A stretch of 64,000 bases of DNA from Macrostomum lignano (GCA_002269645.1 NIVC01001797.1:62001-126000), one strand, 5' to 3'; counted from the stretch's first letter, positions 1 to 21,600 are shown. The notes: generated by a model not told the origin, from the sequence alone. Numbers and translations: made by a program.

Positions 1-3000
1 AGCCGCCTCGGGTATTTCTCACCAGAATGAAGGTAAATAAGCGTCTACTAATTGTGCTAACGTTTTATGGTTAATGTATTGTTTTATAATTTCATCTCCA
101 ATGATTTTTATTGACTAGCCTTGTAGTTGACTAGTTTGACATATATGCCGTCAATAAAAGTTTCTGAATTAAAAACAACATTTGGGATAAAACTTAAGAA
201 CCATACTCCCAATTTCGAAATGGAAGCTGCAGTATGGAGATTCTGAAAAGAAAGCTAGTGCAGATTACAGTCTGCAAGCTGCAGATTCCAAATAAAAGCT
301 ACATGTTCCCACTTGGAAGCTACAGATTCCAAATAAGAAGCTATGGATTCCAATCATAAGCTTGAGGCAGAAGGCTTTCTACGAGCTAGTTTTAATAGAT
401 GCATAGAATGATTTTGTGCTGTTTTGCGCAATTGCGCGTGTATTTATATTTACAAACAGCGCGAGATTGAGGGGCCTAGGAAGGTGCGAAAAAATGGCGT
501 GGCATGATAGGCTACGCCAACTCCCCCCTCCCCCCGGCTTAGCCTCAGCTAGACAAGTTGGGGGGTTTCCAGTGCGGCTGCACTGGTGCTGCCGGTCGCG
601 TACAGTCTGACCGCCTGCCGCCACAAGCTACATATTTCAACTTGGAAGCTACGTATTCCAAATAGGAAGCTATGGATTCCAGTCGGAAGCTACATATTCT
701 AAACCGGAAGCTACGTATTCCAAATAGGAAGCTATGGATTCCAGTCGGAAGCTACATATTCTAAACCGGAAGCTACATATTCCAAATAGGAAGCTACGGA
801 TTCCAGTCGGAAGCTACATATTCCAAACGGGAAGCTACATATTCCAAATAGGAAGCTATGGATTCCAGTCGGAAGCTATGGATTCCAGTCGGAAGCTACA
901 TATTCCAAATAGGAAGCTACGGATTCCAGTCGGAAGCTACATATTCCAAACGGGAAGCTACATATTCCAGATAGGAAGCTATGGATTCCAGTCGGAAGCT
1001 ACATATTCTAAACGGGAAGCTACACATACATGCGCAACCTCCAAATTTCGGTCGGCCGTGCGACTTAGTTTTAACAAAAATGCGACGTAGTTTTTGGCCA
1101 AAAATGCGACTTAGATGTAAAAAAACCCAAAAGGAAAATTAACGCAACTTTGGGTAAACGGCAGGAGTAACTATGACTGTCTTATAAAGCCAAAATGCCT
1201 CGTCAGCTACTTAGTACTACTACTCGGTGTTTTTCGGGTCAGCATTTTTGCGACTTCCTTGGTTGGCCGCCAAATCGGTCGGCCGGATCGGCCGACTCGG
1301 CCGACTGTTGCGCATGTATGAAGCTACATATTCCAAATAGGAAGCTATGGATTCCAGTCGGAAGCTATGGATTCCAGTCGGAAGCTACATATTCCAAACG
1401 GGAAGCTACATATTCCAAATAGGAAGCTACGGATTCCAGTCGGAAGCTACATATTGCAAACTGGAAGCTACGTATTCTAACTTGGAAGCTTCACATTCCA
1501 AAAAGGAAGCTATGGATTCCAGTCATAAGCTACATATTCCAAACGGGAAGCTACATGTTCTAAATTGAAAGCTGCATATTCTAAATAGGAAGCTATGTAT
1601 TATAACCTATATTAATCTCTAGCACATAAGTGAATGTCCATCCACAATTTTCGCTCACAGGACGATCCGGTGAGGCATATATTTTCCAAGCACGACAATC
1701 GCTACAGCTTTATCACAGACGCCACTTATTTGGATTTGGTGAGCAAAACTCTCTTAAGAACAATTACGCTTGTACTAACAAATGAATGGCTGGGTTTTTT
1801 TCGTCTGGATGTTGAATTTCAGGGTCCAGGTCCAGTTTCTAATACTGTCGTGCTCTTAATGCCTGAAGTTTGACCTCCAATGTCAAAAATAAATTAGCTC
1901 CTTGATTTTTATCCTAGATAAGTGCCGTTTTTCTTTTACCGCGAGTCGGGACTAGGGACTTAAACTTCTTTCCATTGCCGAATTCTGTGAGTCAGAAGCT
2001 CAGATCAGTGCGAATAAAAGACAACCAATGATTCTATTGTTTTCGGAACTCAATTCTTCAAGGGCGTCGGCAAGAAGCGGAAAGTGCCCGAGTCCCGTTG
2101 CAACCGCGTCACGGACGATCTCATCAGCTGGGCGCCGCAGATGCGCAATCTGAAGGAGGGCGCCGAGCCGGCCCTGTCAGCCTACAAGCAGGCCTTCACT
2201 GCTGGCCGGCAGCCCGCTCAGCTGCTGGTGTCCCGGCCAAAGACGTCGTTTGACGAGGACGCGCAGGTCCGGCAGACAACCAGCTATCGGTGAGCGGAGC
2301 TCTGCCTCATCAATTCAACATGGTTGCCATGTAGACTAATGCCCCTGACGATGATTGCGGCCATAATAAATCCAACTAAATAGGATTTACAAAGGTAGAC
2401 TCAGGTATATTTTCCCAGCTCCATCAGCATACACGCACAACCTTGGGAATCACTCGGCCGTTTCTATTGGCAACACACACATGTAAGTCGCTATTGGCTG
2501 AGAGCAGTCACGTGACTACTATTCCGTCCAATAGCGACTTTCATGTGTGTGTTGCCAATAGAAACGGCTGGGTGAATCCAGGTTGCGCTGCGCCCAAACA
2601 TGTCCATCAGCACTACAATTACGACAGGTAGATTATTGAATTTTTTTATCGCCGCAAACGATTATTATTACACCTCCGCCGTCTCTTAATTAGCTACGCC
2701 TTTGGCCCGGAGCTGTACAACCCCAACAAGACTGTCGTTGAGGCCATTGGCCGGCCTGCTGTGCTCGCCCGACCCTGCGCTGTGAAGCCGAAGCCGCCAG
2801 CGGTCGGGGTTTCGCGCGCTCGCACCGCATGCGACGGCCGGCTATCCGTAGCTGACTGCCTCACCTGGCAGCCGCACGGTCCGGAGTCCGCCTGCGCCGG
2901 CCTGCCGCGACGCCTCGACGGTGTTGAAGCTCCGCTGGGCCGTAGTTTCAGCCGGTTCGGCCCGCTGGTGCCGGAGGCGACGCCGACCTGTCTGCCCGCC

Positions 3001-3036
3001 GCGGCTGACGCCTCCGCCGCCGCTGCCGCCGACTAG
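1..3036 (+). CDS. C3orf84: C3orf84/CIMIP7-like ciliary microtubule inner protein, 5'-partial; exons <1-32, 1661-1738, 2063-2289, 2694-3036
   Basis: All junctions are GT-AG and phase-compatible (0,0,2). The spliced peptide PPRVFLTRMK|DDPVRHIFSKHDNRYSF..|GVGKKRK..LISWAP..SAYKQAF..TTSYR|YAF..VADCLTW matches recalled human C3orf84 motifs in the same order (PPAVFLQR, RHFFSKHDNRTSF, GIGRRK, FLRWAP, SSYQADF, VSECLNW). Confidence 0.75.
220..1600. repeat. 20/21-bp minisatellite (GGAAGCTACATATTCCAAATA / GGAAGCTATGGATTCCAGTC) in three blocks, about 220-362, 624-1024 and 1321-1600
   Basis: Directly visible tandem units in intron 1 of the C3orf84-like gene, interrupted by two insertions. Confidence 0.95.
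1025..1320. mobile_element. hAT-type MITE, 296 bp
   Basis: Perfect 14-bp TIR CATACATGCGCAAC (1025-1038 / 1307-1320) and 8-bp TSD AAGCTACA (1017-1024 / 1321-1328). Confidence 0.85.
2435..2588. mobile_element. Foldback/MITE-like palindrome, about 154 bp
   Basis: Arms 2446-2497 and 2528-2579 are 52-bp inverted repeats with about 4 mismatches and extend a further ~10 bp. There is a central palindrome AGTCACGTGACT. Confidence 0.75.
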
Positions 3037-4875
3037 ACTGGTTGATGGTTTCGCTCGCTTTTCACCATGCTCATTGCTATATTTTGTGATGTTTTCTAAG
3101 AATAAGAGAGATTATTGGATTATTACTTCACAAGCAATTCTTAACAAGCAAATCCTTGCTGGTTTGTCACAATTTATTGAAAAATATCTATTGGTAGCCT
3201 TAAACTACTAGTTTAGGTGGCAGTAGTATGTAAGTGAACACTTTTTTAAACCATACTATCCTTATGAGTGTGTGTAACAGTAAGAAATTGTATATTCTAG
3301 TACTTGATTATGCTTTAATATTAAAATACTGATAGCGTAGCATAGCGCTCCTAGTTATTAGGCAGTTCGTTGCATTAGAATCCCATGCTATAATAATATT
3401 TATTATTGATGTATATTTTTCTTTTATACGTAGTGTTAAGTAACCCTTTTAAAATTTAGTTGCGAAATGAAAATTACAATAATCTATCTATGTTATGTAA
3501 CGCCCACATAAAGTTGTAATTAGTATGAGCCGAAACCAAAAATTCTTGAAACTTTAGTGCATTATTGAATGCTTTTCTGTGGCAGAAACGGAACAATGGG
3601 TTGTGAAAATTTACTTTGCGATCCTTTTTAGAATCACTGTCTAATATGAAAGGTTCACAATTTTATTTCGTAAAAGTAGCTGACTTTCTGTGATACCAAC
3701 AATTTCGCTTTCTTCAAGCCTTTGAAATTTGCCATGACTGATATTTTTTTCTGGTTTGATGTTTGAACCTATTAAAAAGTTAATCATGCGCACTTTCATT
3801 TTAAAAGAATATCAGTGGTACTAAGTGGGCTGAACGCCTGAACATGACTCATATTATCTATTTTAATCGACTACAGAATCCGATCAATGACCGAAAAATG
3901 TGGTGAGTGGCTGACTGGTATCGATTTTCTCTTGACACTTGACCCACAGTTCACGCGACTCTTTCCTATCCCGCCTGCCCCCTCTGTCAAGTTCACTAGT
4001 ATTAGACCAGTCCAAAAATGAGGCGGGTGACTGTTATCGATTTTCTAGCCGGCACCCTCGACCCCCACCCCACGCAACCCTTTTCCTGCCTCCCCTCACT
4101 GCCTTGTTTATCAAGTTTACTAGAATTAGGCCAGACAGAAAACGAGGCGGGTCTGTTATCGATTTTCTAGGTTTACTCTACTTTTCTACCCTAGCCACAT
4201 CCATTTGATTTTGTCTGTTGCGGGATAGAAAGTTATTCTAAGCCTACCACCCTTAAACTATCATTCGTTGGTTAATGTTTTCTAGTTTTTTTTACCTTTT
4301 TTAGCTCCCGTTTTATTGTAGCACTGCTGATTATAAATAATATATTGTTACACGCAAAGGAAACTTTCTGCTACTTGTTTTGTAAAGCTTAATTTCAAAA
4401 AAGTATCTTTCAATCTGTTTTTGAAAAGATCAAACTGTGCTCACAGATCTTCAATATTTTTTCTAGCAAATGTATTTGTACTCGACACAAAAGATCTGTC
4501 CACTGCTGTTTTTTATATACTTCGTAATAATTAATTTGCTTTTGCCAGCTTTTGTTGCTTTGAATCGTGTTTTTTACCCTCCGTCCACGTGTCGATATTA
4601 TTCCATGGAGCCTGTCTTGGTCGCCACTTCCCTAACCCCACTGCCACTTTTTTATCGTGCTCGTTGTTTCTGTTCTACGTCTACAATTTATTTGCCTTAG
4701 AGTTTTCCTATCGTTTACTAATAATCTCAATCTGTATCACCGCACTGCTGCCTTATCTATTTTCTTTATTATATTTTGCTACTACTTTTAAATAAAGTTG
4801 CTATAACTTTCCTTTTGTCTACTTTTATATCAGCCTTATGTGAGTTTCTAATTTTTTTGCGAATCAAGCATTTCA

Positions 4876-4960
4876 AGAGGCATGAGAAAGGATTTCCTAT
4901 CGAAATGAGGCATAAGAAAGGCTTTCCCATAGAAATGAGGCATAAGAAAGGATTTCCCAT
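4876..4960. repeat. 30-bp minisatellite, left block (GAAATGAGGCATAAGAAAGGATTTCCCATA, about 3 units)
   Basis: Same unit as 6998-7248; the array is split by the RT element. Confidence 0.9.
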
Positions 4961-6997
4961 AACAACACAACAACAGAGTACGCTGCCAGATCACAAAAGC
5001 AGCGTCAGATGGCGCGCTTCAAAGCTTGGGCGCGAACAAAAGCCGCACCGCCGACAGAGTCCGGGGCGCCGGCGTCAGCCAGCAGACAGTCGACGTAGCG
5101 CCGAGTCCTCGCCTGTCCCCGCCGGTAGGGTGCCTGCAACGTAAGTAGCAGCACCTCCTGCACCGGCTCCGGGCAGTAGGCCTCGGCGCGGATGACGTGG
5201 CCTGCCAGCTGGAGTCGCCGACGGCGCAGCAGATCGCTAGGACGGGCCAGGCCGGCGCGATGATAGAGCGCCGTGTTGGTGACTCGCTCGTTGCCGATCT
5301 TGAAGGCGGCGCGCAGCAGGCCAGCGTGCGCCGCGTCGACTTGAGCCTCGAGCGAGTCTGTCAGCGTCCAGGTCTCGGCGTTGTATAACAGGACGGTCTC
5401 GATCACCGCCTGGAACAGCGCCGCCCTCTGGCGGTCCGGTAGGGCCTCGGACTGCAGGACTGACCTTATAGAACGAAAGGCAGCCCAAGCAAGTCCTCGG
5501 CGACGCCGCAGATCCTCGCAGACGTCGGGAACCAGACCGCCGAGGTAGACGAACTGCTGACATCTTGGAAGCTCACTCGCCTGTCCGTCAGCGCCTCGGC
5601 AGAAGATTGCAGCCTCGGTGTCGTCCGGCACGCATAGCAAGACGGTCTTCTGCGTGTTGACCACCAGGCCGACGCTCGCCGCAACGGCAACCAGCCTATC
5701 CAGCTGTCGTTGGGCGCCCTCGACGGTCGAGGACAGCAGGGCGAGGTCATCGGCGTAGCCAAGCACGCTGAGCCGTCTCTCCGGTTGGCGTCGACCCACG
5801 CGTCGCCGCAGCAGGAAGCCGTCGTCGTTGGAAGGCAGAGCAGTCCGTAGCACCCAGTCAAGCACCAGAATAAATAGGAACGGCGCTAGCGTATCTCCCT
5901 GGAGCACCCCGGAGGATGTCTCGAAGAAATCCGATAGGCCGTCCGGTGTTGAGACAGCAGCCGTCGTGCCGTGGTACAGCGCCATGACAGCAGAAATCAG
6001 CAGCTCTGGCACGTTGTACGCACGGAGCACCTCTGGGAGCGCGTCCCTCACGACCGAGTCGAAAGCCTTCCTGAAATCGACGAAGATCAGGATCAGGGTC
6101 AACTGGCGGATGCGCGCCTCCTCGATGACTCGTCGAAGAGCCAGGATCTGCGTCACTGTGCCGCGATGGGGCCGGAAACCGTTTTGCTCAGGCCGCAGGT
6201 ACGGGTCCAGCACAGGCTGTAACCGCGATAGCAGCATGCGGTTGAACAGCTTCGCGGCGCAGGACTGTAGGCAGATGCCTCGATGCTCCTCGAGCTTGGT
6301 GGTGCCCGGCTTCTTTGGAATGGCGACGATGTGCGCCGTGGTCCATTCGTTTGGCGCCACCTCACCGAAAAGCACGCGGTTCATCACTCTGGCGACCTCA
6401 ATGGCCACGCAGTGGATCCGCAGCGCCTCGGTGGGCACCTCGTCCGGACCAAGCGCTTTGCCGCCCGGCGACTGCCGAGCGAACTTCACAACGTCGGCTG
6501 TGCTGACTGGGGCAACATTGAAGCTCTCCTCCGCCGGCAACGGCGTCTCCGGCGGCAGCCTCAGATTTTCTGGAAGCGGAGGGGGCGGCGCGTTGACAAT
6601 GGCGGCGAAGAACTCGCGCAGCTCGTTCCTGCGCTCATCCGGAGTGTCGCCTGCCAGGTTGAGCGCGATGCGCCGCTTTCGCCCCGTCAGAGTGTTGATG
6701 GCGGACCAGGCCACGCGCCCTCTGGCATCGGGCCCTGCGGCAGAGACGGCTTGGATGGCGTCATCGACAGCGGACTGCTGCCGCTGCAGGTAGACAGCCG
6801 CCAGAGCCTCCTCCGCCTCGCGAGTTGGCCGCCCACTCAGACGGAGCCTCTCCAGATCTTCCCTCGCTTCGTCGATCGCGGGGTCGTCCTGCCAGACCGG
6901 CTGCCCGCGCTGGGCCGGTCGCATCAGCGGGACTGCTTGCTCCGCAGCGGCTCGAACTGCAGCGCTCACCTCCGCGTACTCGGCTCCACCACGCTTT
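4961..6997 (-). mobile_element. 5'-truncated non-LTR retrotransposon (RTE-like clade); uninterrupted linker + reverse transcriptase ORF, stop at 5005
   Basis: RT motifs IVAIPKK, EQNGFRP, FVDFRKAFDS, GVLQGDTLAPFLF, YADD, F.YLG, LLYNAETWTLT and L..RRLQLAGHV. No APE domain is present. The short 3' UTR has an ACGCTGC/GCAGCGT stem-loop and a (TTG)n-like tail. Confidence 0.93.
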
Positions 6998-7248
6998 AAA
7001 TGAGGCATAAGAAGGATTTCCCGTAGAAACGAGGCATAAGAAGGATTTCCCGTAGAAACGAGGCATAAGAAAGGATTTCCCATAGAAATGAGGCATAAGG
7101 AGGATTTCCCGTAGAAATGAGGCACAAGAAAGGCTTTCCCATAGAAATGAGGCATAAGAAAGGATTTCCCATAGAAATGAGGCATGAGAAAGGATTTCCC
7201 GTAGAAATGAGGCATAAGAAAGGGTTTCCCATAGAAATGAGGCATAAG
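6998..7248. repeat. 30-bp minisatellite, right block (about 8 units of 29-30 bp)
   Basis: Visible tandem units; reads MPHFYGKxFL on the minus strand. Confidence 0.95.
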
Positions 7249-7313
7249 AATAGATTCGCTCTAAGAAATCAGACACGAGCAGACCCACCCGCCCCCTGCC
7301 GCAGGTGTGGGCC

Positions 7314-8827
7314 ATGTCAAGAAGCGACTCGCCGCGGCCAGGCAGCGCGTTAGGCGGCGCGTCAAGCGTTTTAGCGGGCTCCGACACTGAGGGTTGGCTG
7401 GCGCGGACCCTGCAGCTGCTGGCCTCGAGCCGGCCCGACAGTGTTCAGCAGCTGCGCGAGCTCCTTGACCAGGCTATCGGTTCTGAGCAGGTGCCCGGTG
7501 GGTCAGCGGCGCAGCAGCAGCAGCAACACAGTGTCAGGAACAGCAATAATGGCCAAGTTGTTGGCGAACCGGAAAAGAAAAAGGCTAAGATGACTAATTC
7601 CGAGAGTCGTTTGCGGCTTATTGACGTTTTTAGCGGCGATGGCGGGGGTAAGATTCAAGACTGTTATTGATTTCTTTTATTTGTCCCGGATCAAGAGGTA
7701 TGTTCTGATTGGTCCCGGATTGAGAGTTCGGTTCTGATTGGTCCCGGATTAGAGTTCGGTTCTGATTGGTCCTGAACTGACAGTTCGGTTTTGATTGGTC
7801 TCGGATTGAGAGTTCGATTCTGATTGGTCCCGGATTGAGAGTTCGGTTCTGATTGGTCCCGGATTGAGAGTTCGGTTCTGATTGGTCCCGGATTGAGAGT
7901 TCGGTTCTGATTGGTCCCGGATTGAGAGTTCGGTTCTGATTGGTCCCGGATTGAGAGTTCGGTTCTGATTGGTCCTGGATTGAGAGTTCGGTTCTGATTG
8001 GTCCCGGATTGAGAGTTCGGTTCTGATTGGTCCCGGAATCCGGATTGAGAGTTCGGTTCTGATTGGTCCCGGAATCCGGATTGAGAGTTCGGTTCTGATT
8101 GGTCCCGGATTGAGAGTTCGGTTCTTATTGGTCCCGGATTGAGAGTCCGGTTCTTATTGGTCCGGGATTGAGAGTCCGGTTCTGATTGGTCCCTGATTGA
8201 GAGTTCAGTTCTGATTGGTCCCTGATTGACAGATAAATTTTGATTGGTCCGAGGTGGATTTCGATTGGCCGATTAGAGGCAGTTGTGCTTAGATATATGA
8301 TGAGGGAAGTCGCTACTCAATATCAATTTTTGCTTTCGCCTGTCCTTCACTAACCATCAGCGTCGGCAAGCGGCAGCCCGGACACCGGCAGCGGCTCTTT
8401 GTCCAAGTCGCGGTCCAGGCCGGAGCTGTCTAGCAGCGATCAGCTGTCCACTGCGCCGGCTTGGCAGTCCGACCCGGCGCACTGTTGCGTAAAGTGTCGC
8501 TCCAGCCGCGGTCAATTAGTGGACTGTTTCGACTGCAAAGACATGTACCACCTGGACTGTCACAATCCGCCAGTGTCTGAGAGTGAAGTCAGCGACCAGC
8601 GCAGCGTCTGGTACTGCCTGCGTTGCCGGCGAAAGGGCCGCCAATCTGCTGTAGCCGCCGATCTGCCCGTCAGGCCGCCGGCCGCCTCTTCAGGCGGATC
8701 GGCAGCTGCCGCAGCTGCCTCTTCAGCCGCAGCTAGCAGCGGTGGGCACAAGATTAAAGCGGCCGCCGCAGCCGCCGGGCCAGCCTCAGAGTTGGCGCCG
8801 GCTAAGAAGCGGCCAAAGCGAGACTGA
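7314..8827 (+). CDS. INTS12: Integrator complex subunit 12 (PHD finger); exons 7314-7647, 8361-8827; about 266 aa
   Basis: N-terminal WLARTLQLLASSRPDSVQQLRELLDQAI resembles INTS12 [26 protein letters not shown]. The PHD GQLVDCFDCKDMYHLDCHNPPVSESEVSDQRSVWYCLRC resembles INTS12 [39 protein letters not shown]. The phase-1 intron has a GTAAG donor and a CTAAC-CATCAG acceptor. Confidence 0.9.
7700..8250. repeat. 29-bp minisatellite GGTCCCGGATTGAGAGTTCGGTTCTGATT in the INTS12 intron
   Basis: Period 29 measured at 7861/7890. Confidence 0.95.
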
Positions 8828-9126
8828 CATGATACTGCTTTTAGAAATATTGGATTAGTTGCTGTTTTAGTGCAATTTATGTACAATTCGTCTTTATTAG
8901 TGGGAACTCAGACAAAAGAAGATGCCGCCTCTAGACTGCTCTCTGTGTTGATGAAAGTTCAAGCCTTTAAATTTAGCTGAGAGGAATAAAGATTGCAGGA
9001 AAATTTGAAAAAACCCAAATCTACAATAGTGCGTGTGCGTAGCGAGCAAGAAAGGGTTGGCATCTCAGGCCCAGCCAGGCCGATAAACAGTTAAGCTTTC
9101 CTCTCGCCCGCTTGAGTCTGAATTTT

Positions 9127-9385
9127 GACCTCTCTCCTCACTGCTCTCTCATTGGCTGAGCTAGATTGGGTCTAGGTTTGACTTTTGTCGGTGTAACTTA
9201 GACCTCTCTCCTTGCTGCTCTCTCATTGGCTGAGCTAGATTAGGTCTAGGCTTGACTTTCGTCGGTGTAACTTAGACCTCTCTCCTTGCTGCTCTCTCAT
9301 TGGCTGAGCTAGATTGGGTCTAGGCTTGACTTTCGTCGGTGTAACTTAGACCTCTCTCCTTACTGCTCTCTCATTGGCTCAGCTA
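9127..9385. repeat. 74-bp tandem repeat, about 3.5 copies
   Basis: GACCTCTCTCC recurs at 9127, 9201, 9275 and 9349. Confidence 0.95.
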
Positions 9386-9829
9386 CGAGCTAGATTGGTC
9401 CCTCTTGCGTTCACTTATGTGCATCGAGTAAGGAAACCCCGAATAAGGAAAGGAAATTTTAAATTTCAGCTACAGCTGGAGGTGTGGGACTGACTCAGAT
9501 GTGAATTTACTGATCTCTGTAACTGAACTCACTCATCTCTCCAGCCAATTAAAAAAATAGTTTAATTAAAGTATTGAATGGTTGAAAGTGGTTATCAAAT
9601 ATACATATAATTTGTACTATGATCGTATTGTTTTATTATGGTTTAGCATACTAACAACGCTTCACTTGAAAATGCATTGTTTAACGATGTTTTGGCAAAT
9701 TTTACCATATACTATGGTAAGAAACGAGGTTTTATTCGAAAAAAACAGTAGAAACCATACTAGCGATTAGCAATATACGTGTACTAGATGGTATTGCAAT
9801 AATAACCAGTTCAAATTGTTACTACAAGC

Positions 9830-10591
9830 ACTGCATGTTCTTGATCTCTACGTCTCCCTGATTTGGAACGTGCAATTCTCGAATTTTCCATTGAAATTCA
9901 GGAAGACCCTTGCTATTTTAACGCTGTCATCAGTAGTAATCTGCACAATCTCGGAAGCGTCTGAATTAGCAGTCCTGGCTCCACCGCTAGCTTCTGTTGC
10001 AATCACGGGCGCTATAGCCTCACTGTCAGCCTCGTCAGCAGCTTTGGCAGCTCCGTCGTTTGAAGCTTGACATCGGTATTCGCATTAGATGTACGTAGTT
10101 GCTAATGGTCGTTCCAGCGCTATACTTACGAAATCCGAAATGCGAGTTACCCGAATGCAATTATTAGCATACTTTTTAGACAAATCGCATACGTCACTTA
10201 GGTGACGCATAAAATTAGCTACCCAATTAATGCCTCGAACTTGGTTGATAGAGAAACGCAGGTTGCCGCTTCCATCGTTTGCTAAGGGGTGTGGAAAAAA
10301 GGATGAATCCTTTGTGTTCTCAGGTAGGAGATTCGTTGCTGTCCATAGAGACGAGCTTGCTTTGCTATGTTGTTCTGAGCACGCGTCGGATCGGTCGATT
10401 GATTTTTTGTTGGCATATCCGGTAGGTTCAAATATGCTTGGCCATCAGCGTCTACTCCTTCTACCAAAGTACCCTTCTTCTTCAGATACTTCAGGTGCTC
10501 TTGGCCGCGTTCATCTAACCTATGGCTATAGAGTAACATAAATATCACTTCATCCTGAAGACGCTGCTCGCTCTGTTGTACTTCTGTCAAA
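9830..10591 (-). pseudogene. Crypton-type (DUF3504-like) tyrosine recombinase A, C-terminal part
   Basis: Frameshifted reading gives YFDRS..RLQDEVIFMLL..RGQEHL..DADGQAYL..TKNQ..RLY, then GINWVANFMRHLSDVCDLSKKYANNCIRVT, ending FNGKFENCTF. These are typical DUF3504/KCTD1/ZMYM-type YR motifs. Confidence 0.75.
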
Positions 10592-10658
10592 GTATCTGTT
10601 ATGTCTTCTGTTTTTTAATGATAAATCAAATGAGCAAGTCTGGAACTTAAAATGTTAA

Positions 10659-10738
10659 GTATAAGGTATCACCCCCATGGACTGATTTATCTGGCCCACA
10701 TACAAGACTGAGGACTGCGTCGGGGTGATACCTTATAC
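10659..10738. mobile_element. 80-bp TIR element inside the left LTR
   Basis: Perfect 17-bp TIR GTATAAGGTATCACCCC (10659-10675 / 10722-10738), absent from the other LTR. Confidence 0.75.
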
Positions 10739-11149
10739 GTACGTTGCGCTGGGAAGCAAATCATTTTGTTTATGGTTCGGCTTGGCTTATAGCCACAGCA
10801 TCCCCCCCCCCTTTTATAAAAATAACGAACAGTTTAAGTCCCAAACTTGAGTGATCAAGGAAGTCTCAAAATAGTCACTTTTTTATCCTCGGCATGGCCA
10901 GCCAATAGTCTATGGCCGTCATTTAACTGGCCGGGCCAAAAAAAGTAATTTCTTCGACCGGGCCATTAAACGGCCTTTGGAAAATTTCAAATAAGGGTAA
11001 GAAAACTTATATATTGGTTTATTATCGAATAACGCAAAACATACTGAACTGTTTTTAATAAACATGGCAAAACAACAAGACCTCAACAGCTGGCAGATAC
11101 ACTCGTACTCACAAGAATTGCTACACGAAACTCTCAAGTCTACACGATA

Positions 11150-12586
11150 TTCATTAGTCGAAATAGATCACTACCTTGTTGTTGACTCCGTCAGCTTCTA
11201 TTCTCATTCTCTTCTTTTCGGTTCCGGAACAGAAATTCCAACCTTCTCTAGCGCGACGACAGCCGTTTCCTTGGCGTCAGGAGCACCAGGAGCGACTCTG
11301 GACCGTCCGCAGCCAGATCCACAGCCAGAACAGCTTCATTGACATCGGAACTCTTGCCCGTCGAATTCCGGCAATGATGGCACTAGTACGACGTTGCACG
11401 CAACAGACATGCCAATGTAGCGTTCAATGGCGCTGCTACTGTGACCTGTGATACGAATGTTTTTTCAATAAAAGAAAAAATGTTTAATATAAGATAATAT
11501 TTTAATGTAAGAAAAGTAAAACTTTATGACCTGTGATCCAACAAATGTCGCGCGTTCAATTCCAGCGTCGTGTAATCGGGTAGCAGTTGTCTTCTGCAAG
11601 CTTTGGTTGGTGTACCGTCCAGAATCTTCCGGCGCCACCTTAGACGTCAATTTGGACACCAGTCCGGCAAAGAATGTCGACCCATCGGCGTTTTCGTGAA
11701 CCATCCACCAGACTTTCCCGGCGCCAGAACCGATTGGGCGACAAAAAGACGCTTGGTCAGAGTCCTCAGGTCGCTTTGCGATGTAAGCCTTGTAGACACA
11801 CACGATACATCGCTCATGGCTATCAGAATTGAATGCACGGACGATTTGATCCCGTCGCAACTCCTTCAGTCCGCCTGGTGCGTCTTCGTCACGAATTGTT
11901 CACGACTTTAGACACTCGCTCCATCGACGGCAATCCAGTCGAATCTGCTTCTCAATTGCAAATCTCTGAGCTCGGAACACCAGCAAAGCAAAAGCTTGCC
12001 AACAAGCCACACAATCTCCAAGAAGTTCGGAGCCCCAGAGGCGTCCTCGACAGAACACGGAATGGCTTCAGCTCGACGGAGTCCGGCACATTTTCCATCC
12101 CTCGTTGAGAGCTTCATTGAAGCATCCAATGCTCGTCGACTCTCGCTAAATTCCGGTTCCTTCCAGAAACTCCAATCCTTCTTTAAGGTGTTTTGAAGTA
12201 GTACTGGATCATAGAAAACAGGTCTTTTAACGTCGACGCGGTGTATCATTCACTTCGTGGGTTCTCACTTCAAATACAAAAAACTTGAGCAGGTAGTTCA
12301 GATCGCCTTTGCTCATTTCTTCGCAACTCTTAATCACCATCAGGCCAGTTGTAGTTCCATCAGCCCAAGCAGTCTTCTTAGCCTCGTGCCATGCAGTAAA
12401 GACGCTCATAGCCCAATCGGCCTTTTTCCTCGTTGACGCAGGTGCACTTGCCAACAGCTCTCTCTCAATGTCTTCATTTGTGATCATCTTGAAGCGTTGG
12501 ACTCCTCCGTTCTTCTCTTCGTAGAAGTCGAGCAGCTCCTCAGAAATAAAAAACTCCGACGGGTTTTGAGAAGCTCTATTTTCCAT
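11150..12586 (-). pseudogene. Crypton-type (DUF3504-like) tyrosine recombinase B nested in the Gypsy 3' region; 85-nt intron at 11446-11530
   Basis: STRKKADWAMSVFTAW..LLKFFVFEVR; PEFSESRRALDASMK; RCIVCVYKAYIAKRP; YTNQSLQKTTATRLHDAG; ITG|HSSSAIERY after splicing; C-terminal MRIEADGVNNKVVIYFD. Several frameshifts. Confidence 0.82.
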
Positions 12587-12809
12587 ATCAATTGATTCAG
12601 TTTATTAATTGATTGATTTCGCCTTGCAGAATATCTTCACGGCCATATACACATTTTGGGGAGGGTCCCAGGCTGGGCTATGCTCAAGATTAAATACGAT
12701 ACTACCCCCCAAAAACTGCGCCTCGGCCAAGAAACGAGTCCTCAGCCAACTTCATGGCCAAAGAAACGTTTTGGGGGGTATTATCTTATACGTAAATCAC
12801 TCTTTGCTT

Positions 12810-15800
12810 GCTTGGCTTGCCGCGTGCTGCGCCGTGGCAATTCCTGTATAGCTGGCTTAAACGTATGGTCCACTCGGACTGACTCAGACTCAGAATCCAT
12901 TTGCAGTTCCGAAATGCCATCGTCATCGTGCACATGCTTTCCACCAGGGTTGCCATCGTTTTTACGCATCATTGGGTTTCCAATGCTGACATCCTTGTTC
13001 GAATCTCATTGATCGTCTCCCTGAGACTTCGGGTCTGAGCTTGTTCGTTGAAGCTGATCTCTGTGCACTTTCTGGAATCTTCCGTCTTCCAGCTTGACAA
13101 TTGCGGTATTCCTTCCCAATGGATTGATCAGCCTGGCCTCGTGTGTTGACTTCTCCGTCTTGTACACTACGGTTTCACCAGGACTCCATCCAGCTGCTGA
13201 CATCAAAGGTACACGCAGTTTTCTTCCCATCAGTAATTCTGCTAGAATAGAAGGTACCTGTCGATTGCGGCTTGGGAAAATCTATTTGCACTGACAGCTT
13301 TTTTATTGTACGAACAAATCGCTCAGTCAGACCGTTGCTAGCTGGGTGGTATGCTGGGGTCGTTACATGATCTCACCCGATTTGAGTCAACCAACCTTGT
13401 GTCTCTTGGCTAACAAAGCTTGATCCATTGTCGGACACCAGGACTCTCGGTACCCCTAGCTGGGAGAATGTTCTTCTCAACCTCGAGATCACCGTAGCGG
13501 ATGTCATGTCCCGTGTCACGTGCACCTCTGGATAGTTCGAATGAGAATCAACCATGACGAGCAAATTATTGTCCTTCTATCGGACCCGCAAAATCGATGT
13601 GAATTCGATCCCAGGGGCCTTGTGGTGCTTGCCATGAAGTTCGGAAATTTCGATTTAGAGGCTTCGCCTTCTTGCATGTCAGACAACAACCAACTACACG
13701 CTCTACCGCCTTATCGACACCTGGCCACCAGAAGTACTCGCGCAATAGAGACTTAGTGCGTGTCATGCCTAGGTGTACACCGTGAGCTGCGTTCACTGCT
13801 TTATCTTGAAGTGCAACTGGCAACACTATCTTGGACCCACGAAGCACCAAGTCTCCCTCAGTTGATAGTTCTCCAGCCAGTGGTTTGTAGCTACCCATCT
13901 CACTGTTCTAGAACTGTCCAGTTTGAATTGCCTCTCGGAGAGTTCGCAGTTCGTGGCACTTCCTGGGCCAAAACCGAAAATCGGTCAGCTTGAGCAGATG
14001 ACTTTCTGAAAGATGGATTGCACCAGTCGCGTGAGTTGGAGCCTCCATCGAAGCGTTTACAAACCTAGATAGTGCATCAGATCGCATCTCCACCAACTTC
14101 CGATATGTTATGCTGTAGTCGTAGCCGGACAGTAAAATAGCCCATCTTTGCAGGCGCGCCGAAACCCTTTCTGGTAGCTGACTAGAGGGTCCGAACACGA
14201 AGGTCAGAGGACGGTGGTCAGTTACTAGCGAGAATTCTCTGCCACAAAGAAACCGGTGACATCGTCGAATGCCCCAGACAATCGCCAATGCTTCGCGTTC
14301 GATCTGTGAATATTCTCTTTTGCGCCGGTGACAACAACTTGCTAATGAAGATTATGGGTCTGCCTTCCTGAGAGAGCACGCCACCAATGGCCACCTGCGA
14401 AGCGTCACATTCGATTTCCACTGTTTTCTTCGGATCGTACGAATGCAACATAGACTCAGTCGACAGTGCCATCTTGATCTTATTGAAAGCTTGTTCGTGC
14501 TTGTCTGTCTAAGTGAACTCGGCTCCTCTGCGTCTAAGCTGTGACAGGGGCTCAATGAGTTCTGCGAGGTTGCGAATAAATTTACCGCAGAAATTAACGA
14601 GGCCAAGAAACGATTCCTATTCCGGTAGATTTTTAGGGGCTGACATCTCCCTTAACGCGTGCACCTTCTCTTAATCTGGCTTCACTGTCCCTGACTCGAG
14701 AATGTGACCCAGAAAGCGGACCCGAGTCTGCATTATCTAACATTTTTCCTCGTTTGCTGTCAAGTTGTGCTTGGCCAACCGTGCTCTAACTTCGGCTTCT
14801 CTGTCTCTGAGGTCTTCTTTGGTCACGCCGCCAATGAGAATATCATCGACATATGCTACTGGTCCAGAAATTCCTTGAATCACTTCTACAATGTAACGTT
14901 GGAAAATACTGGGGGCAGTCTTTAACCCAAAGACTAGACGGTTGTATCTGAAGTTCCCGAATGGTGTAGACATCACAGTGATATCCTTGGAAGAGTCGTC
15001 TAGGTGCACCTGGTTATATGCTTTCTCGAGATCCAGAATCGTGTAGTATTTGCAATTTGTCACTGCTGCGAATGCTTCTTCAACTGTCGGCAACGGGTAG
15101 CTATCCCGCTGTAGCTGTGGATTGACTGTCGTCTTATAGTCGACACAGATCCTGAGACCGCCATTGGGTTCTTGCACAGTCACAATGGGTGACGCCCACT
15201 GCGAAAAGCTAACTTGCTCGATCACTCCGTCAGTCACAAGCTTGTCGATCTCGCATTTCAGACGCTCGCGCAATGCGAATGGCACAGGCCTCGCTTTGAT
15301 GTACTTGGGCACTGCGCCATCGACTAATCGTAAGCTTGCCTTGAACGGAACTGAATCTTTCATCTCTGTATGTCCAATAGAGACGCATTCCGGATTGAGT
15401 TTGATGACATCTCGTCCGAGCAATGCAAAGTTGCGGTTTGAGCGGACTACTTGAAACGTAATCTTGATGTTTCTTCCTTTCCGTTCCGTGACGACAGGCA
15501 ATGAACCCAACTGGTCGAATTTGTGTCCGTCGGTGTAGCCCACCAAAGTCGAGGTGCTACCTTGCAACTTTGGCTTTTCAAATCTATACCACAGCTTGCT
15601 GGACAGAACTGAAACCGAAGCTCCCGTGTCAATCTGACAGATTATGGATTGCATTTTGCCTTCTACTTGACATGCCAGCTCCACTGTAGAGCACGACGCT
15701 TCTCTGCCAGTGTCAGTGTGCAAAATGTCTCTTTTTGCAGAATCCTCAGCCACAAAGTTCTGTTGACCGGATAGGCTTGACCGACATGCCTTTTGAAAGC

Positions 15801-16612
15801 GGTTTGGCTTACCGCATCTCTTGCAGGTTTTTCCATAGCCGGACATGCTGTCTTTGGATGCTGGTTGCCACCACAACGAGGGCACTTCTTGTCTCCTCTG
15901 GGTGGGATCGGCCTTGACAGTTTTGGCTTTGAGCTGCCGATTTTCATGACCGTCCCTTCCGCTTTTGATGTGACGCATACGCCTCGGCTTCCGCCACAGC
16001 AGCCTTGAAGGTTAGCTCCTCAAAATCTCGGATTAGCAGCTTTGCTATGATGACTTTGTCATTCAGTCCGCAGATGAATTGGTCCCGGAGCCGTTCCTCC
16101 TTGACCTTGTTGCTATCCGACGCTTTGAGCAGCCTCTCAGCGAATGCTCGAACGCCCTCTTTTGCGTCCTTCTTGGCATTTTGAAAGGCGTACCGTTCAG
16201 ACAGGACATATGTTTTAGGCACCAGGATCTCCTTCAGCGCCTTGTTGAGCTCTTCGAAAGACATTGTGCTCGGTAATGTACACAGAGCCAGATGATTCGC
16301 CAGAGTGTCGTACAGACCAGCAGACAGACGCATGAGCAAAATCTGCGCCTTTTCTTCTTCTCCCCATTTGCAGAGATTGGCCGTAACTGTGAAGCGTTCC
16401 ATCCATCGTGGAAGCGACTTTCCTTCCTCCAGCTTCTCAATGTCGATCATGTTGAGCATGTTGTTTCCGATCATTGGCTGGTGGAATTGTGCAGTTTGGC
16501 CGATTCCTTCCAGACTCGAAGGCAGTGGCACTTTGCCATCCTTAGTCACCGTCTTTGCTGCAGACTTCACTGGCGATGCCATTTTCTCAGCTGCCGGTGT
16601 TGGTGGTGCCAT
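12810..16612 (-). pseudogene. Gypsy gag-pol (gag, CCHC knuckles, protease, RT, RNase H, integrase) with multiple frameshifts and stops
   Basis: RLRDQFICGL; CPRCGGNQHPKTAC; IDTGASVS; YVDDILI; CDASQVAIGGVLSQ; VTDHRPL; HLGMTRTK..WWP..CLTC; IHIDFAGP; VSDNGSSF; VHRDQL; PRRSTR tail. Domain order is PR-RT-RH-IN. Confidence 0.93.
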
Positions 16613-16628
16613 CCTGCTTGCGATGCCA
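16611..16628 (-). promoter_or_regulatory. Primer-binding site, probably tRNA-Ser type
   Basis: The 18-nt TGGCATCGCAAGCAGGAT lies 1 nt inside the 5' LTR. Its complement ATCCTGC-N6-TG-CCA resembles tRNA-Ser 3' ends (inference). Confidence 0.6.
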
Positions 16629-16842
16629 CTGTTGTGTCTTCTGTTTTTTAATGACAAATCAAATGAGCAAGTCTGAAACTTAAAATGTTAAATTAACCAG
16701 CCGTTCTTCGACTCTTGTCTTATTATTTATTTCTGCAAGCCTAGCTTGCTCTTGTTACGCGTAGATCGCTAAAGCGTACGGTGCGCTGGGAAGCAAATCA
16801 TTTTGTTTATGGTTCGGCTTGGCTTATAGCCACAGCAGTATC

Positions 16843-17395
16843 TGCTCAGTCTTACTAGGTCACCTTCCTCGATTGGTGGATATTGTCTTCTGACAGAACC
16901 AGATCCAATATACTCTCGTACTTTGACAAGCAGCATTCGATTTGCAGCAGCAAATTCGTCTCTAGAAATTATGTTGACAGAGCGCTTGAGAACCAAGCAG
17001 AAATATCTCTGAATGCCGGCATGCATGCAAACCAAAGCAGCAGGTGAGTAAACTCCACCGTCAACTTTCTTCAAAGAGAAGTAATTAAAACGTAGAAACT
17101 CGTTTAGGATGGTCTCCGACATTGTCACAGGCGAAACTTCAGTTTGTCTTCCTAGAAACTCCACGAACGCTTTACCATGCTGGAACATCTGTTCTCGCGT
17201 AGTCTTGGCTAGCAAGTCGATTTCAACGCGATCTAGATCCATAATCGGCAGAACAGCATCTTCTGGTAGATCGGGTAGAGTAGTGTTCAGTAGCAACTGG
17301 GTCATCATTGGTAGGATCTATAGGTAGTGAATAAAACTCATTAGATCAGCGTCATCAGCGTGGTCTTTTGCACTCAACATAGGAAGAAAATCCAT
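16843..17395 (-). pseudogene. Crypton-type tyrosine recombinase A, N-terminal part
   Basis: LNEFLRFNYFSLKKVDGGVYSPAALVCMHAGIQRYF..VNIISRDEFAAANRML..PPIEEGDLVRLSRY. It rejoins the 10591 part once the LTR element and one GTATC are removed. Confidence 0.8.
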
Positions 17396-17714
17396 TTCGT
17401 TGGCAGACACCGTTAAGGGAGTCGGTTGGCAAGTTTTTCCAATTTATTAGATGCGTTCTAGAGAAGAGTAGACAGTGTTCAACCAAATCAAGCTTATAAA
17501 AATCGAACCAAAGCCCTATGCGTTCTTCTCCTTTTTCACTCCATAGTCTATAGCACAGTTGTAGCGGTCTGATGTATGTCTATGGCCAAAATCTGCGCAG
17601 TCTGGAACGTTTCTGATTTGCAGAGGCATCGTTAAACAATCGGTATTAAACAACGCTTTCAGCGTTAAACAATGCTTCTAGTCGAGTATGCTAAACGATA
17701 TAGTAACAATAAGC

Positions 17715-17843
17715 TTATTCATATGGTACTAGAGGTAAACAATAAACAAAATCACGAGTGGCCCTACTTCAAGACAGACAAGCAGTGGCTACGCCACTCG
17801 TGATTTTGCTTATTGTTTACCTCTTATAGTACCATACGAATAA
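17715..17843. repeat. About 50-bp-arm inverted repeat upstream of recombinase A (candidate element terminus)
   Basis: 17715-17762 versus 17793-17843, with core GAGGTAAACAATAA.CAAAATCACGAGTGGC. Confidence 0.8.
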
Positions 17844-18661
17844 TCTAACATTGCTTGTCTATCTGTTTAATTAGGTTCTTCGATCGGGAGCTATTTTACT
17901 GTGTTTTTTAGTTCACACCTCACTACATAGAAAATCAAAGGTTTGCGCTGGATCAGACAGGTGAAAGTATATCTGGTACATATACCTGTGATTTATTGCG
18001 AGCAACGTGTTATCTAAAGCTGTTCCCTAGCTGAGAGGGTCTGGCTTGCCTCGGCCAATCACTGCACTCGAATGCTTCATTGGCCTGCTGTAATACTCGT
18101 ATATACATGTATTTCTTTCTAGCCCGTATCGCAGCGCTTCGGTTTGCTTGTGTTAGCTGCTAAGAAAACATTTCGTAAAAGTATAGTTAAACCCGCGGCT
18201 TCGAACTGCAAAATCATCATGGTACTCTTGGATGAGGCTGTTCGCGAGATCTGCCGTCAGGGCCTGTTCTGCAAGATGACCTCCGGGGAGCTGATGTGTA
18301 AGGAGGAATATTGCTGATATCTGAAATTTTTGGCAGCTATGCTTTGTAAAGCTCAAGAAACTTTGTCGCCGAAAGACAGAATCTTTCACAATATCGAAAT
18401 TTCGCATAGTCAATTTTTCACATGACAGACCTGCGCGGTCCCTTCAGCGCGATAAATTTCAACCTCGAAAGCTGGCAATTTTCAAAAAATACTATAATTT
18501 GCTAGTCGTATTGAAAACTTATACTGTAGAGTCTTGAAACTCAAATTCTGTTGCTAATATTAAGACATGGCTATGCACATTGAACACTCAAATACTCAAA
18601 ACCTCGATTCGCAGCGACACGGGAGGAGCGAACCCTCACCGTCCAGCATCCGATCGTGCTG

Positions 18662-21600
18662 ATGGCCCACTGCCTCTGGTGCGGCTCGTCTGCGATTAAC
18701 GAAGCGTAAGTTGAGCTTAAGTCCCTGCCTCAGAGTTTGCATTGGTGATACTTGTGTGACTTTACTTGTACGTATGTGTGCAGTTTTACCAACATCAACC
18801 AAACCAAATTAATGCGGTCTAGTTCCTTTACTAAACACGATGATCAGATGGTCAAGTTCCTTGAAACAACGCTAGGGTGCAGTAGAGTCTCTCATTTACA
18901 GTGATGCAGTCCCAGTTTCTAAACCAACCACTAAAAACACAATGACTTCAGTCCAGTTTCTTATTGGGAACAAAAAAATAAAGTCCAATAGACCACTGAT
19001 GCCATCCAAATCATTGAATGAAGCACTGAACACATGATGCGGTCCAGTTCCTAAAAGCACCACGGCCAACACAATGATGCGGTCCAGTTCCTAAATGAAC
19101 CACTGAACACAATGATGCGGTCCAGTTCCTAAATGAACCACTGAACACAATGATGCGGTCCAGTTCCTAAATGAACCACTGAACACAATGATGCGGTCCA
19201 GTTCCTAAATGAACCACTGAACACAATGATGCAGTCCAGTTCCTAAATGAAACACTGAACACGATGATGCGGTCCAGTTCCTAAATGAAACACTGAACAC
19301 AATGATGCGGTCCAGTTCCTAAATGAAACACTGAACACAATGATGCGGTCCAGTTCCTATCTTTCCATCCCTCAGATCCAGCTGCTTCAGCCACATCCTG
19401 TCCAACCTGAACAGCTCGGGTCCAGTTTCCCAACTGTCGCACCCGTCGTCAAAGTCGACGCAACAGTCGCAGTTGCAGCAGTCGAATTTAAGCCATCCCG
19501 ACGATGGCGTCAAAGTCACAGCCGCCGTAGGCGTGGCCGTTGCTCTCCACTGCCTGCTGATTGCAGTCGGCCTCGTGAGCAATTTGCTCGTGTCCGGGAT
19601 TCTCATCCGTAGGCGCCAGTTCGCCAACGTGACCAACCTGTTCGTGCTTGGCCTGTCCCTGTCGGACATCCTCATCTGCGGCCTGCTGATGCCTTCGCTG
19701 ATGTACTACGACCTGTCCAGACGGGGCTATATCTCGGCCAGCCCGCCCGGCCGGCTCTACTGCCAGCTGCTGCTCACCTCGCTAAACGTGCCGATCTACG
19801 CCAGCTGCCTCATCATCCTGTGGATCGCGGTGGATCGGCACCGCCTCATTTGCCAGCCGCATCGTCGCCGGATGTCCCGGCCGGTGGCCGTCGGCCTCCT
19901 GCTGCTGACCGGCTTGGTCAGCGCGCTCGTCCACTCGCCGACTGTGGCGTTCAACGCGCCGCCAGACGGCCGACGGAGCCAGTTCTGCGCCGAGCAGTGG
20001 CCAGACAAGCGGCTGCGGCTGGCCTACTCGATCGGCGCCTTCTGCCTGCAGTTCTGCACTCCGCTGCTCGTCACCGGGGCGCTGTACAGCCGCATCTACC
20101 GCCGCCTGCAGGTCCGGGCGGCCAACCGGCAGCGCCGGGAGACCCGGCGGAAGCGGCGCACCAATCGAATCCTCGTTGCCATAGTGATCAGCTTCGCCAT
20201 CTTCTGGAGTCCCTGGTCGGTGTTCAACGTGGTGTCGGAGATCGAGCAGTTCAAGAGGCGGGCCGATCCGGTCGAAGTGGCCGCCTTCTTGGATTGCGTC
20301 AACATGACCCAGCCGTGGGACACCGTCAATGAGAACCTGCGTACTCTCTTCGACTCTTACAGTGAGTCTTTGGGTTGTAATCGGACAGCGAGAGTCTGTG
20401 GGTTGCACTCGGACAAGTGAGAGTCTGAGGGTTGTACTCAGACAGTGACAGTCTGTGAATTTTACTCGGACAGTGAGAGTCTGTGGGTTGCACTCGGACA
20501 GTGAGAGTCTTTGGGTTGCACTCAGACAGTGAGAGTCTGAAGGTTGTACTCGGACAGTGAGAGTCTGAATGTTGTACTCGGACAGTGAGAGTCTGAAGGT
20601 TGTACTCGGACAGTGAGAGTCTGTGAATTTTACTCGGACAGTGAGAGCCTGTGGGTTGTACTCGGACAGTGAGAGTCTGTGAATTTTACTCGGACAGTGA
20701 GAGCCTGTGGGTTGTACTCGGACAGTGAGAGTCTGTGAATTTTACTCGGACAGTGAGAGTCTGTAGGTTGTACTCGGACAGTGACAGTCTGTGAATTGTA
20801 CTCGGACAGTGAGAGTCTGTGAATTGTACTCGGACAGTCTGTGGCTTGGCTTGTTAGACTCGGACAGCGAGGTTTTGTGAGATTGGTTTTGACTCGGATA
20901 ATGGTGCGTACACCTGAACAGCTCAGGTACATTTGACACTTCGTAGTGTCTGCTTGGCTTTTACTCGTATTTTTTCTAATTTTTTTTATGTTTGCTAGGC
21001 TTCGAACTTGTGGAAACAGTGATTGGGCGAGATGGAGAAGTCTACTGGGGAGTTTTGTTGTTCCAGTGCAAGCAACCGCCAGAAGACATCGACAAAGTGG
21101 AGCTGGCATTAACTGGGTTGGGGCAGCCACCTCTTATAAATGATTTAACGAGTTCTTTTTCCCTGACTTCATCCCAGATTCCGCCTCCTCCTCACTAAGC
21201 TTGGCCCCCAACCAAGCAGCTCCATCTTTTATTGGCGAAAGAGAGGACGCCAAAGGCAAGTTCGCTTGACTGGCTTGAAACAGGCGGTTTATGGCTTAGC
21301 CGAACGTGGCTACATGAAATTCTGGATACTACGAATTCGATATTTAGCTGAAAAGTACTTCGGCGTTTTTCAACTATGATACTATCACGATGAAAGTTGG
21401 GATTTTTAGGGACTTTTCTGCACATTTCTCTTACGATTGGCAGTCATAGACGACTACATGACCTACTAAATTTGTCTTTTAAGGTTTTAAGGCTTTTCGG
21501 GTAGTTGAAGATATATTAGCTCTTGTCTACTTCTCTCCTGCATGTCTACTTTCCCCTATGCCCAACTCTCGTTTGTCTATTCCTCATCCTCGGCTTTCAT

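Follow-up and report, generated by a model that had tools for sequence, protein, structure and literature searches.

The 64,000-nt stretch of the Macrostomum lignano genome analysed here, termed the window (GCA_002269645.1 NIVC01001797.1:62001-126000; coordinates are counted from the window start), contains a nest in which a Ty3/Gypsy long terminal repeat (LTR) retrotransposon splits one tyrosine recombinase (YR) element, Crypton A, and itself carries a second, Crypton B, together with a palindromic Crypton end, layer C, inside its 3' LTR. The nest is real and is best explained by independent successive insertions, with a probability of about 0.85. For the order of events we infer that A inserted first and the Gypsy element then entered A, that B, arriving as DNA after Gypsy integration, and the Crypton end C subsequently entered the 3' end of the Gypsy, and that all layers were in place before the locus was duplicated to its present three copies. 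The junctions, the empty sites and the free copies of the elements are directly observed, and they support the successive insertions envisaged in a preliminary description of the window. The three levels proposed there (A, Gypsy and B) are confirmed by the LTRs, the GTATC duplication, uninterrupted A relatives and empty B sites, but the fourth layer, C, had been missed, the middles of the two LTRs differing over ~80 bp.

The element at 10597-16837 is a Ty3/Gypsy retrotransposon, as defined by LTRs ending in TG..CA (minus strand), a primer-binding site (PBS), a polypurine tract (PPT), GTATC on both sides and the Pfam domain order Retrotrans_gag (weak), RVP, RVT_1, RT_RNaseH and Integrase_H2C2. 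The same LTR-gag-protease-reverse transcriptase-RNase H-integrase-PPT-LTR layout with a 5-bp duplication is given for M. lignano Ty3/Gypsy elements in PMC12801592, which lists 129 Ty3 families for this species and whose main text does not contain the words Crypton, tyrosine recombinase or nested. The 5' and 3' LTRs show 3-4 mismatches over the 124 bp they have in common. Sibling copies are 92-94% identical; twelve such loci were fetched, of which nine hold the 3' region and are informative for B, representing five independent sites as judged by shared flanks, and three lack that region. Within gag of one sibling a 3.4-kb insertion resembles another LTR element (L039:1808-5244; G000:C1863).

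On the minus strand the frame ...DLVRLSRY ends at the right GTATC and FDRS.. resumes after the left GTATC. These frames meet when the Gypsy is removed, as previously described, although no working gene is restored. In six uninterrupted A relatives (L042-L047), which the preliminary description had suggested seeking, the sequence of window 16837-16854 is continuous with that of 10595-10598, and across the Gypsy site an intact relative reads ..KMRAYFDRSTAERLQDEV. The two window halves of A align in order to an intact 449-residue relative, and the free relatives are 71-84% identical. Crypton A does flank the Gypsy but extends beyond the 9830..17395 first assigned to it, reaching about 9620-17852, and its subterminal regions show weak inverted matches. 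Each of the three copies of the locus has lost about 40 residues, including the catalytic-tyrosine segment, and contains stops or frameshifts; A is therefore a pseudogene. Three of the relatives (L042, L043 and L045) have a 920-bp insertion in the YR gene in common, and L045 also contains, at 2536-5260 (G000:C997), a reverse transcriptase element with a SAP-domain gag-like open reading frame (ORF), which we take to be DIRS/Ngaro-like.

The YR identity of A rests on a predicted fold and on relatives, not on a DUF3504 match of its own. The Pfam search gave no match at all for the A window fragments, and DUF3504 (PF12012) matched neither these nor the intact in-genome relatives. A profile of the family retrieved 5053 proteins at E<=0.001; among 96 aligned family members 82 match DUF3504 (E<=0.001) and 80 match Phage_integrase, residues R229, K263, H350, R353 and Y385 are at least 90% conserved, and PF12012 occurs in 45-77% of members among the Atlas neighbours of A. 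The structure model of an A relative has a predicted local distance difference test score (pLDDT) of 89.6 and matches Cre (E 1.4e-9), an earlier model built from 12 rows having been unusable (pLDDT 49). Searching the PDB by sequence with a single A relative returned nothing meaningful, and the A profile finds XerA, QRICH1 and integrases there.

Crypton B lies between the integrase tail and the PPT, in gag-pol orientation and with exact bounds. All nine informative sibling loci are without it, 12792 being joined to 10879 over 4 nt, and free copies with other flanks, likewise suggested as a search, were found at six loci (L004-L007, L015, L020). B within a Gypsy is seen at no locus other than this one and its two duplicates. 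Insertion took place after TTAC with no target duplication, and in the duplicate on contig C628 the 3' junction of B consists of GGGGATTAA followed by 4 target bases, thus indicating neither loss nor duplication; a target deletion at B is rejected on the same junction. In contrast to A, B fits the earlier DUF3504-type label directly, its duplicates on C767 and C628 scoring 62.7 and 61 bits against a cut-off of 29.7, while the frameshifted window fragment scores 20.4 bits (E 5.6e-4). Relatives of B read LRGG..NQSLR..TGH..Y and the window copy reads LQK for LRK; a stop is present in 3/3 copies besides this catalytic Arg-to-Gln change. The YR genes of A and B are both dead at this locus. B had been described as a second, clearly different YR gene, and this is borne out by a 33-row YR tree placing A and B on opposite sides of a 100/100 branch and by the ~21% identity between their intact relatives. 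That tree is made up of unnamed relatives together with an amphioxus protein and a shark ATF7IP-like protein, with no named Repbase CryptonA elements; A groups with the shark protein, and B shares its side with a long-branched ZMYM-like host protein. In Pfam only QRICH1, DUF3504 and Phage_integrase rise above noise in the intact relatives, with no reverse transcriptase and no extra C-terminal domain.

An 85-nt GT-AG segment of B, also present in free B copies, is likely to be an intron. One contig of the probable RNA run X2, identical to the locus but for one substitution, skips it, and contigs of three other runs span it. The genome search gave no match to an intronless B. Since the genomic copies and DNA-type contigs keep the intron and no intronless copy was found, B has likely not passed through spliced RNA. 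A contig of X2 also crosses the 5' junction of Gypsy and B by ~64 bases (window 12199-12856), and X2 coverage is present over Gypsy and B and almost absent over A, which hints that transcription from the LTR runs on into B. The intron is family-specific, related families having none at that place, and an 11-bp direct repeat supplies both splice sites; the intron may have been gained through an insertion that involved duplication.

In the middle of the 3' LTR, 80 bp stand in place of 84 bp. This insert corresponds to the 5' end of a different Crypton family (43 matches), and ends of this type lie 550-650 bp upstream of B-group YR matches on contigs C1887 and C4. At the locus, C consists of two perfect ends facing outward. 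C came after Gypsy integration because it is present in the 3' LTR only. Related two-ended or self-inverted Crypton forms occur elsewhere (L175, L200, L205). The proposal that all C-type arms are solo 85-bp elements was rejected, as some share downstream bodies with differing upstream flanks (L055/L139, L145/L157). In the 3' LTR of a sibling Gypsy (L029:3190-3515 and L030; G000:C102, C46) one complete non-autonomous Crypton of 320 bp, a derivative of the L127 family, represents an independent insertion in the same LTR stretch and orientation, with no duplication and no loss. Three independent Crypton insertions lie within ~220 bp of the 3' end of this Gypsy family, and none was seen in internal gag-pol among the 12 aligned siblings.

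The same nest occurs on two further contigs (C767 and C628; L040 and L041) at 97-99% identity. Flanks beyond A are also shared, from which the three B-in-Gypsy copies, and the three nests as a whole, are judged to have arisen by duplication of a single locus, which agrees with the duplicated blocks that PMC5730564 reports for M. lignano.

The ends of these Cryptons have recurrent features. The 5' palindromes of A, B and C have z scores of -13.6, -4.4 and -4.1 against shuffles, and many other YR loci have a palindrome upstream of the ORF. B-group 5' ends begin GTATAAG after a TTAA-like core, with T at -3 in 24/34, A at -2 in 28/34 and A at -1 in 24/34 junctions, and B-group 3' ends finish GGGGATTAA ~30 bp past a copy of the 8-base motif CCATAGAC. 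No target duplication is found when B is compared with its empty sites or at the LTR insertion of L029/L030. Judged from these sequences, duplication-free insertion after a 4-bp core fits tyrosine recombinase strand exchange, and exchange in the core is the Crypton insertion model given in PMC13465315. An invertible switch in the palindrome interior of B was rejected: near-complete palindromes in L151, L195 and L029 indicate that partial loss of either arm explains both forms. Several loci show two inverted 5' ends or deletions starting at the hairpin tip, ..GCGAAGC (L200-L203, L205-L206, L210-L216, L175). Two others, L173 (G000:C578:238700-239300) and L174 (G000:C2296:127700-128450), consist of ~60-bp tandem units with a Crypton 5' end and by their sequence are satellite derived from a Crypton terminus. 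The Crypton load of the genome is very large and diverse: it yielded 362 DUF3504 candidates, and all 150 that were scored exceeded the cut-off. Cryptons are dispersed in it together with non-autonomous derivatives, and the many identical open frames of 412-483 residues suggest recent activity.

Within 110 bp upstream of Crypton junctions, on either strand, CCATAGAC is found at 14 of 33 (11/23 in the discovery set, or 10/22 after a duplicate pair is merged, and 4/11 in a second family); the counts exclude the tandem-array loci L173 and L174 and the element-internal junctions L200/L202 and L206. The controls gave 20/1260 random windows, drawn from 14 arbitrary genome stretches, and 0/22 Gypsy flanks. 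The excess over random windows has p 5e-12 for the discovery set and 3e-5 for the second family, that over Gypsy flanks p 2e-4, and the best of 1119 other letter orders of the motif reached 2/34. The B-group recombinase is likely to bind CCATAGAC, which lies in the elements' own ends and near targets, and such binding would bias B-group Cryptons to other Cryptons and to the LTR of this Gypsy family. We tentatively extend this, at clearly less than even odds, to a motif-guided recombinase of animal CryptonA that would bind CCATAGAC in its own ends and in the target and join the hairpin 5' end to a TTAA-like core tens of bases away. Integron and CTX-phage recombinases offer an analogy, as they act on folded single-stranded sites. 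If the proposal is true, one-ended hairpin attacks would account for the replacement of 84 bp in the LTR, for the inverted self-insertions and for the hairpin-tip deletions, and every sequence bearing the motif, this Gypsy LTR included, would be a Crypton trap.

Several points weigh against these readings, both of the arrival of B and of the motif. X2 is RNA by guess, no run being recorded as such, and the intron skip comes from one contig of one run; conceivably, a donor Gypsy took up B and then transposed a single time without splicing. The motif was picked out post hoc, its narrow form (same strand, <=100 bp) scored 0/11 in the second family, and the 110-bp either-strand window was chosen after the second-family set was seen. 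At none of the three junctions of the window itself does an exact CCATAGAC lie within 110 bp, the C junction having CCATAAAC at 37 bp and CCATAGAC at 177 bp and the B junction CCATACGT at 77 bp. Distance and strand vary, unlike in a classical YR site. At least three motif-bearing flanks match other Crypton-associated loci, so that clustering or local hopping could yield the signal without motif recognition, and, as an empty site is known for a minority of junctions only, some flanks may belong to the elements. The motif link is a modest mechanistic lead.

Nesting by chance in a repeat-rich genome, with the motif excess arising from Crypton clustering or local hopping and no recognition of a target motif, is a serious possibility that falls somewhat short of even odds; it agrees with the successive insertions favoured here on the nest and differs on targeting alone. 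The hundreds of YR places (917 and 488 first-look candidates), the other nests noticed incidentally in the genome and a rough estimate, with assumed copy numbers, of about one such nest per genome speak for it, as does the fact that Crypton ends contain CCATAGAC and that its occurrences in random DNA are clumped (24 in 5/14 stretches). It is opposed by the clustering of three Cryptons at the Gypsy 3' end with none in gag-pol, by most motif-bearing flanks matching no other examined locus except their own duplicates, and by CCATAGAC or a one-base variant already being present in empty LTRs of the Gypsy family. There is some evidence for a local insertion hotspot of the kind earlier envisaged; the rough chance estimate requires no hotspot. 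The preliminary description had also considered that the YR gene occupies the env position of an LTR element; in this reading the Gypsy family would carry it as a third ORF, as cargo or in a chimeric retrotransposon. The location and sense of B suit this cargo, and the X2 contig over the Gypsy-B junction and the X2 depth suggest that the composite may be transcribed; yet the sibling comparison set out in that description found B in none of the nine informative loci, B has its own ends and free copies, its presence in Gypsy is confined to one locus with two duplicates, the intron is kept with no intronless copy found, and the gene has a stop and the Arg-to-Gln change. As a family trait the cargo is refuted, and overall it is highly improbable. 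Even less credible is an assembly artefact joining repeats. Small indels are indeed numerous in the window copy when it is compared with short-read contigs, and none of the listed contigs extends over the entire stretch, but three diverged copies have the same nest and junctions, the target duplication is exact, the empty sites reproduce and the Gypsy-B junction is crossed by a contig that differs little.

Nested transposons are routine, and the stack described here is in that respect ordinary. Its Cryptons resemble CryptonA of Kojima and Jurka (2011; PMC3212892), for which that paper similarly gives a single YR ORF of 430-480 residues with no extra domain, an animal host, insertion without target duplication, non-autonomous derivatives and copies interrupted by transposons. 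The grouping of A with the shark ATF7IP-like protein fits the Crypton-derived ATF7IP sequence of that paper. It reports no terminal repeats for animal Cryptons, does not use the word palindrome and gives TATGG termini for CryptonS alone; in contrast, 5' palindromes of 80-150 bp are present in A, B and C, along with a TTAA-like core at the junctions and CCATAGAC nearby. TATGG lies in the reverse complement of CCATAGAC. Glomhopper, a CryptonA subfamily of Glomeromycota (PMC13465315), has the same DUF3504 YR, intron gain, repeat-rich sites beside transposons and short direct repeats, there read as target microhomology, but it is fungal, and the abstract and Background of that paper name no nearby target motif. 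DIRS/Ngaro YR retrotransposons likewise combine reverse transcriptase and YR genes in one terminally repeated unit, whereas the retroelement here possesses an integrase of its own as well as true LTRs and a target duplication, the YR being a separate later insertion. As far as literature searches reach, which left out Repbase Reports, supplements and subscription journals, A, B and C are further Crypton elements, and no paper on Macrostomum Cryptons or on a link to CCATAGAC was found. This genome supplies Crypton ends known to the base, their empty sites and 5' hairpins, a consensus for the core, a candidate motif for binding and recombinases with open frames, all of which make the way in which animal Cryptons move and choose targets testable. 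They may also hint at an ancestral DNA-binding preference of the domesticated DUF3504 proteins ZMYM, QRICH1 and KCTD1.

Table 1. Components of the nest and their positions in the window.
Feature	Position	Strand	Basis or remark
Crypton A 5' part	16838..17852	-	relatives' alignment, hairpin z -13.6; holds palindrome, internal CCATAGAC and YR N-terminal half
Crypton A 5' palindrome	17712-17846	-	hairpin z -13.6
Internal CCATAGAC of Crypton A	17578	-	motif position
YR pseudogene of A, N-terminal half	about 17450-16838	-	
Crypton A 3' part	9620..10591	-	relatives match to 9626; YR C-terminal half and 3' end region
YR pseudogene of A, C-terminal half	to about 9851	-	about 40 residues with catalytic-Tyr segment gone
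Target-site duplication GTATC, 5 bp	left 10592..10596, right 16838-16842	no strand	
Ty3/Gypsy LTR retrotransposon, gag-pol broken	10597..16837	-	Pfam domains, siblings
gag of Gypsy	about 16615-15947	-	
Protease-reverse transcriptase of Gypsy	from 16011	-	
RNase H of Gypsy	14351-13911	-	
Integrase H2C2 of Gypsy	13907-13569	-	
5' LTR, intact	16630..16837	-	bears CCATAAAC (CCATAGAC in some siblings)
PBS	about 16611-16628	-	directly downstream of 5' LTR
3' LTR, middle replaced	10597..10800	-	comparison with 5' LTR
PPT	10801-10822	-	adjoins 3' LTR
Layer C, two-ended palindromic Crypton 5' end, 80 bp	10659..10738	no strand	flanks TTAA and GTAC; replaces 84 bp of 3' LTR
Crypton B, DUF3504/QRICH1-type YR pseudogene	10880-12791	-	empty sites and free copies
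5' palindrome of B	about 12690-12791	-	
B 3' end with CCATAGAC	10908	-	TTAA-like terminus
Probable B intron, 85 nt, AT-rich, GT-AG	11446-11530	-	11-bp direct repeat at bounds

Around the nest, no tRNA gene was found in the window. A long open frame at 5005-7260 (-), preceded by 29-30 bp tandem repeats, encodes a non-LTR reverse transcriptase that is presumably RTE-like. Host gene pieces adjoin the nest at 7254-8827 (+), including an exon at 8354-8827 that we assume to be PHD-finger-like, and at 19344-20420 (+), a frame taken here to encode a neuropeptide-receptor-like G protein-coupled receptor. Tandem repeats near the nest lie at 9121-9385 (74 bp), 7685-8308 (29 bp), 19030-19397 (38 bp) and 20360-20922 (28 bp).

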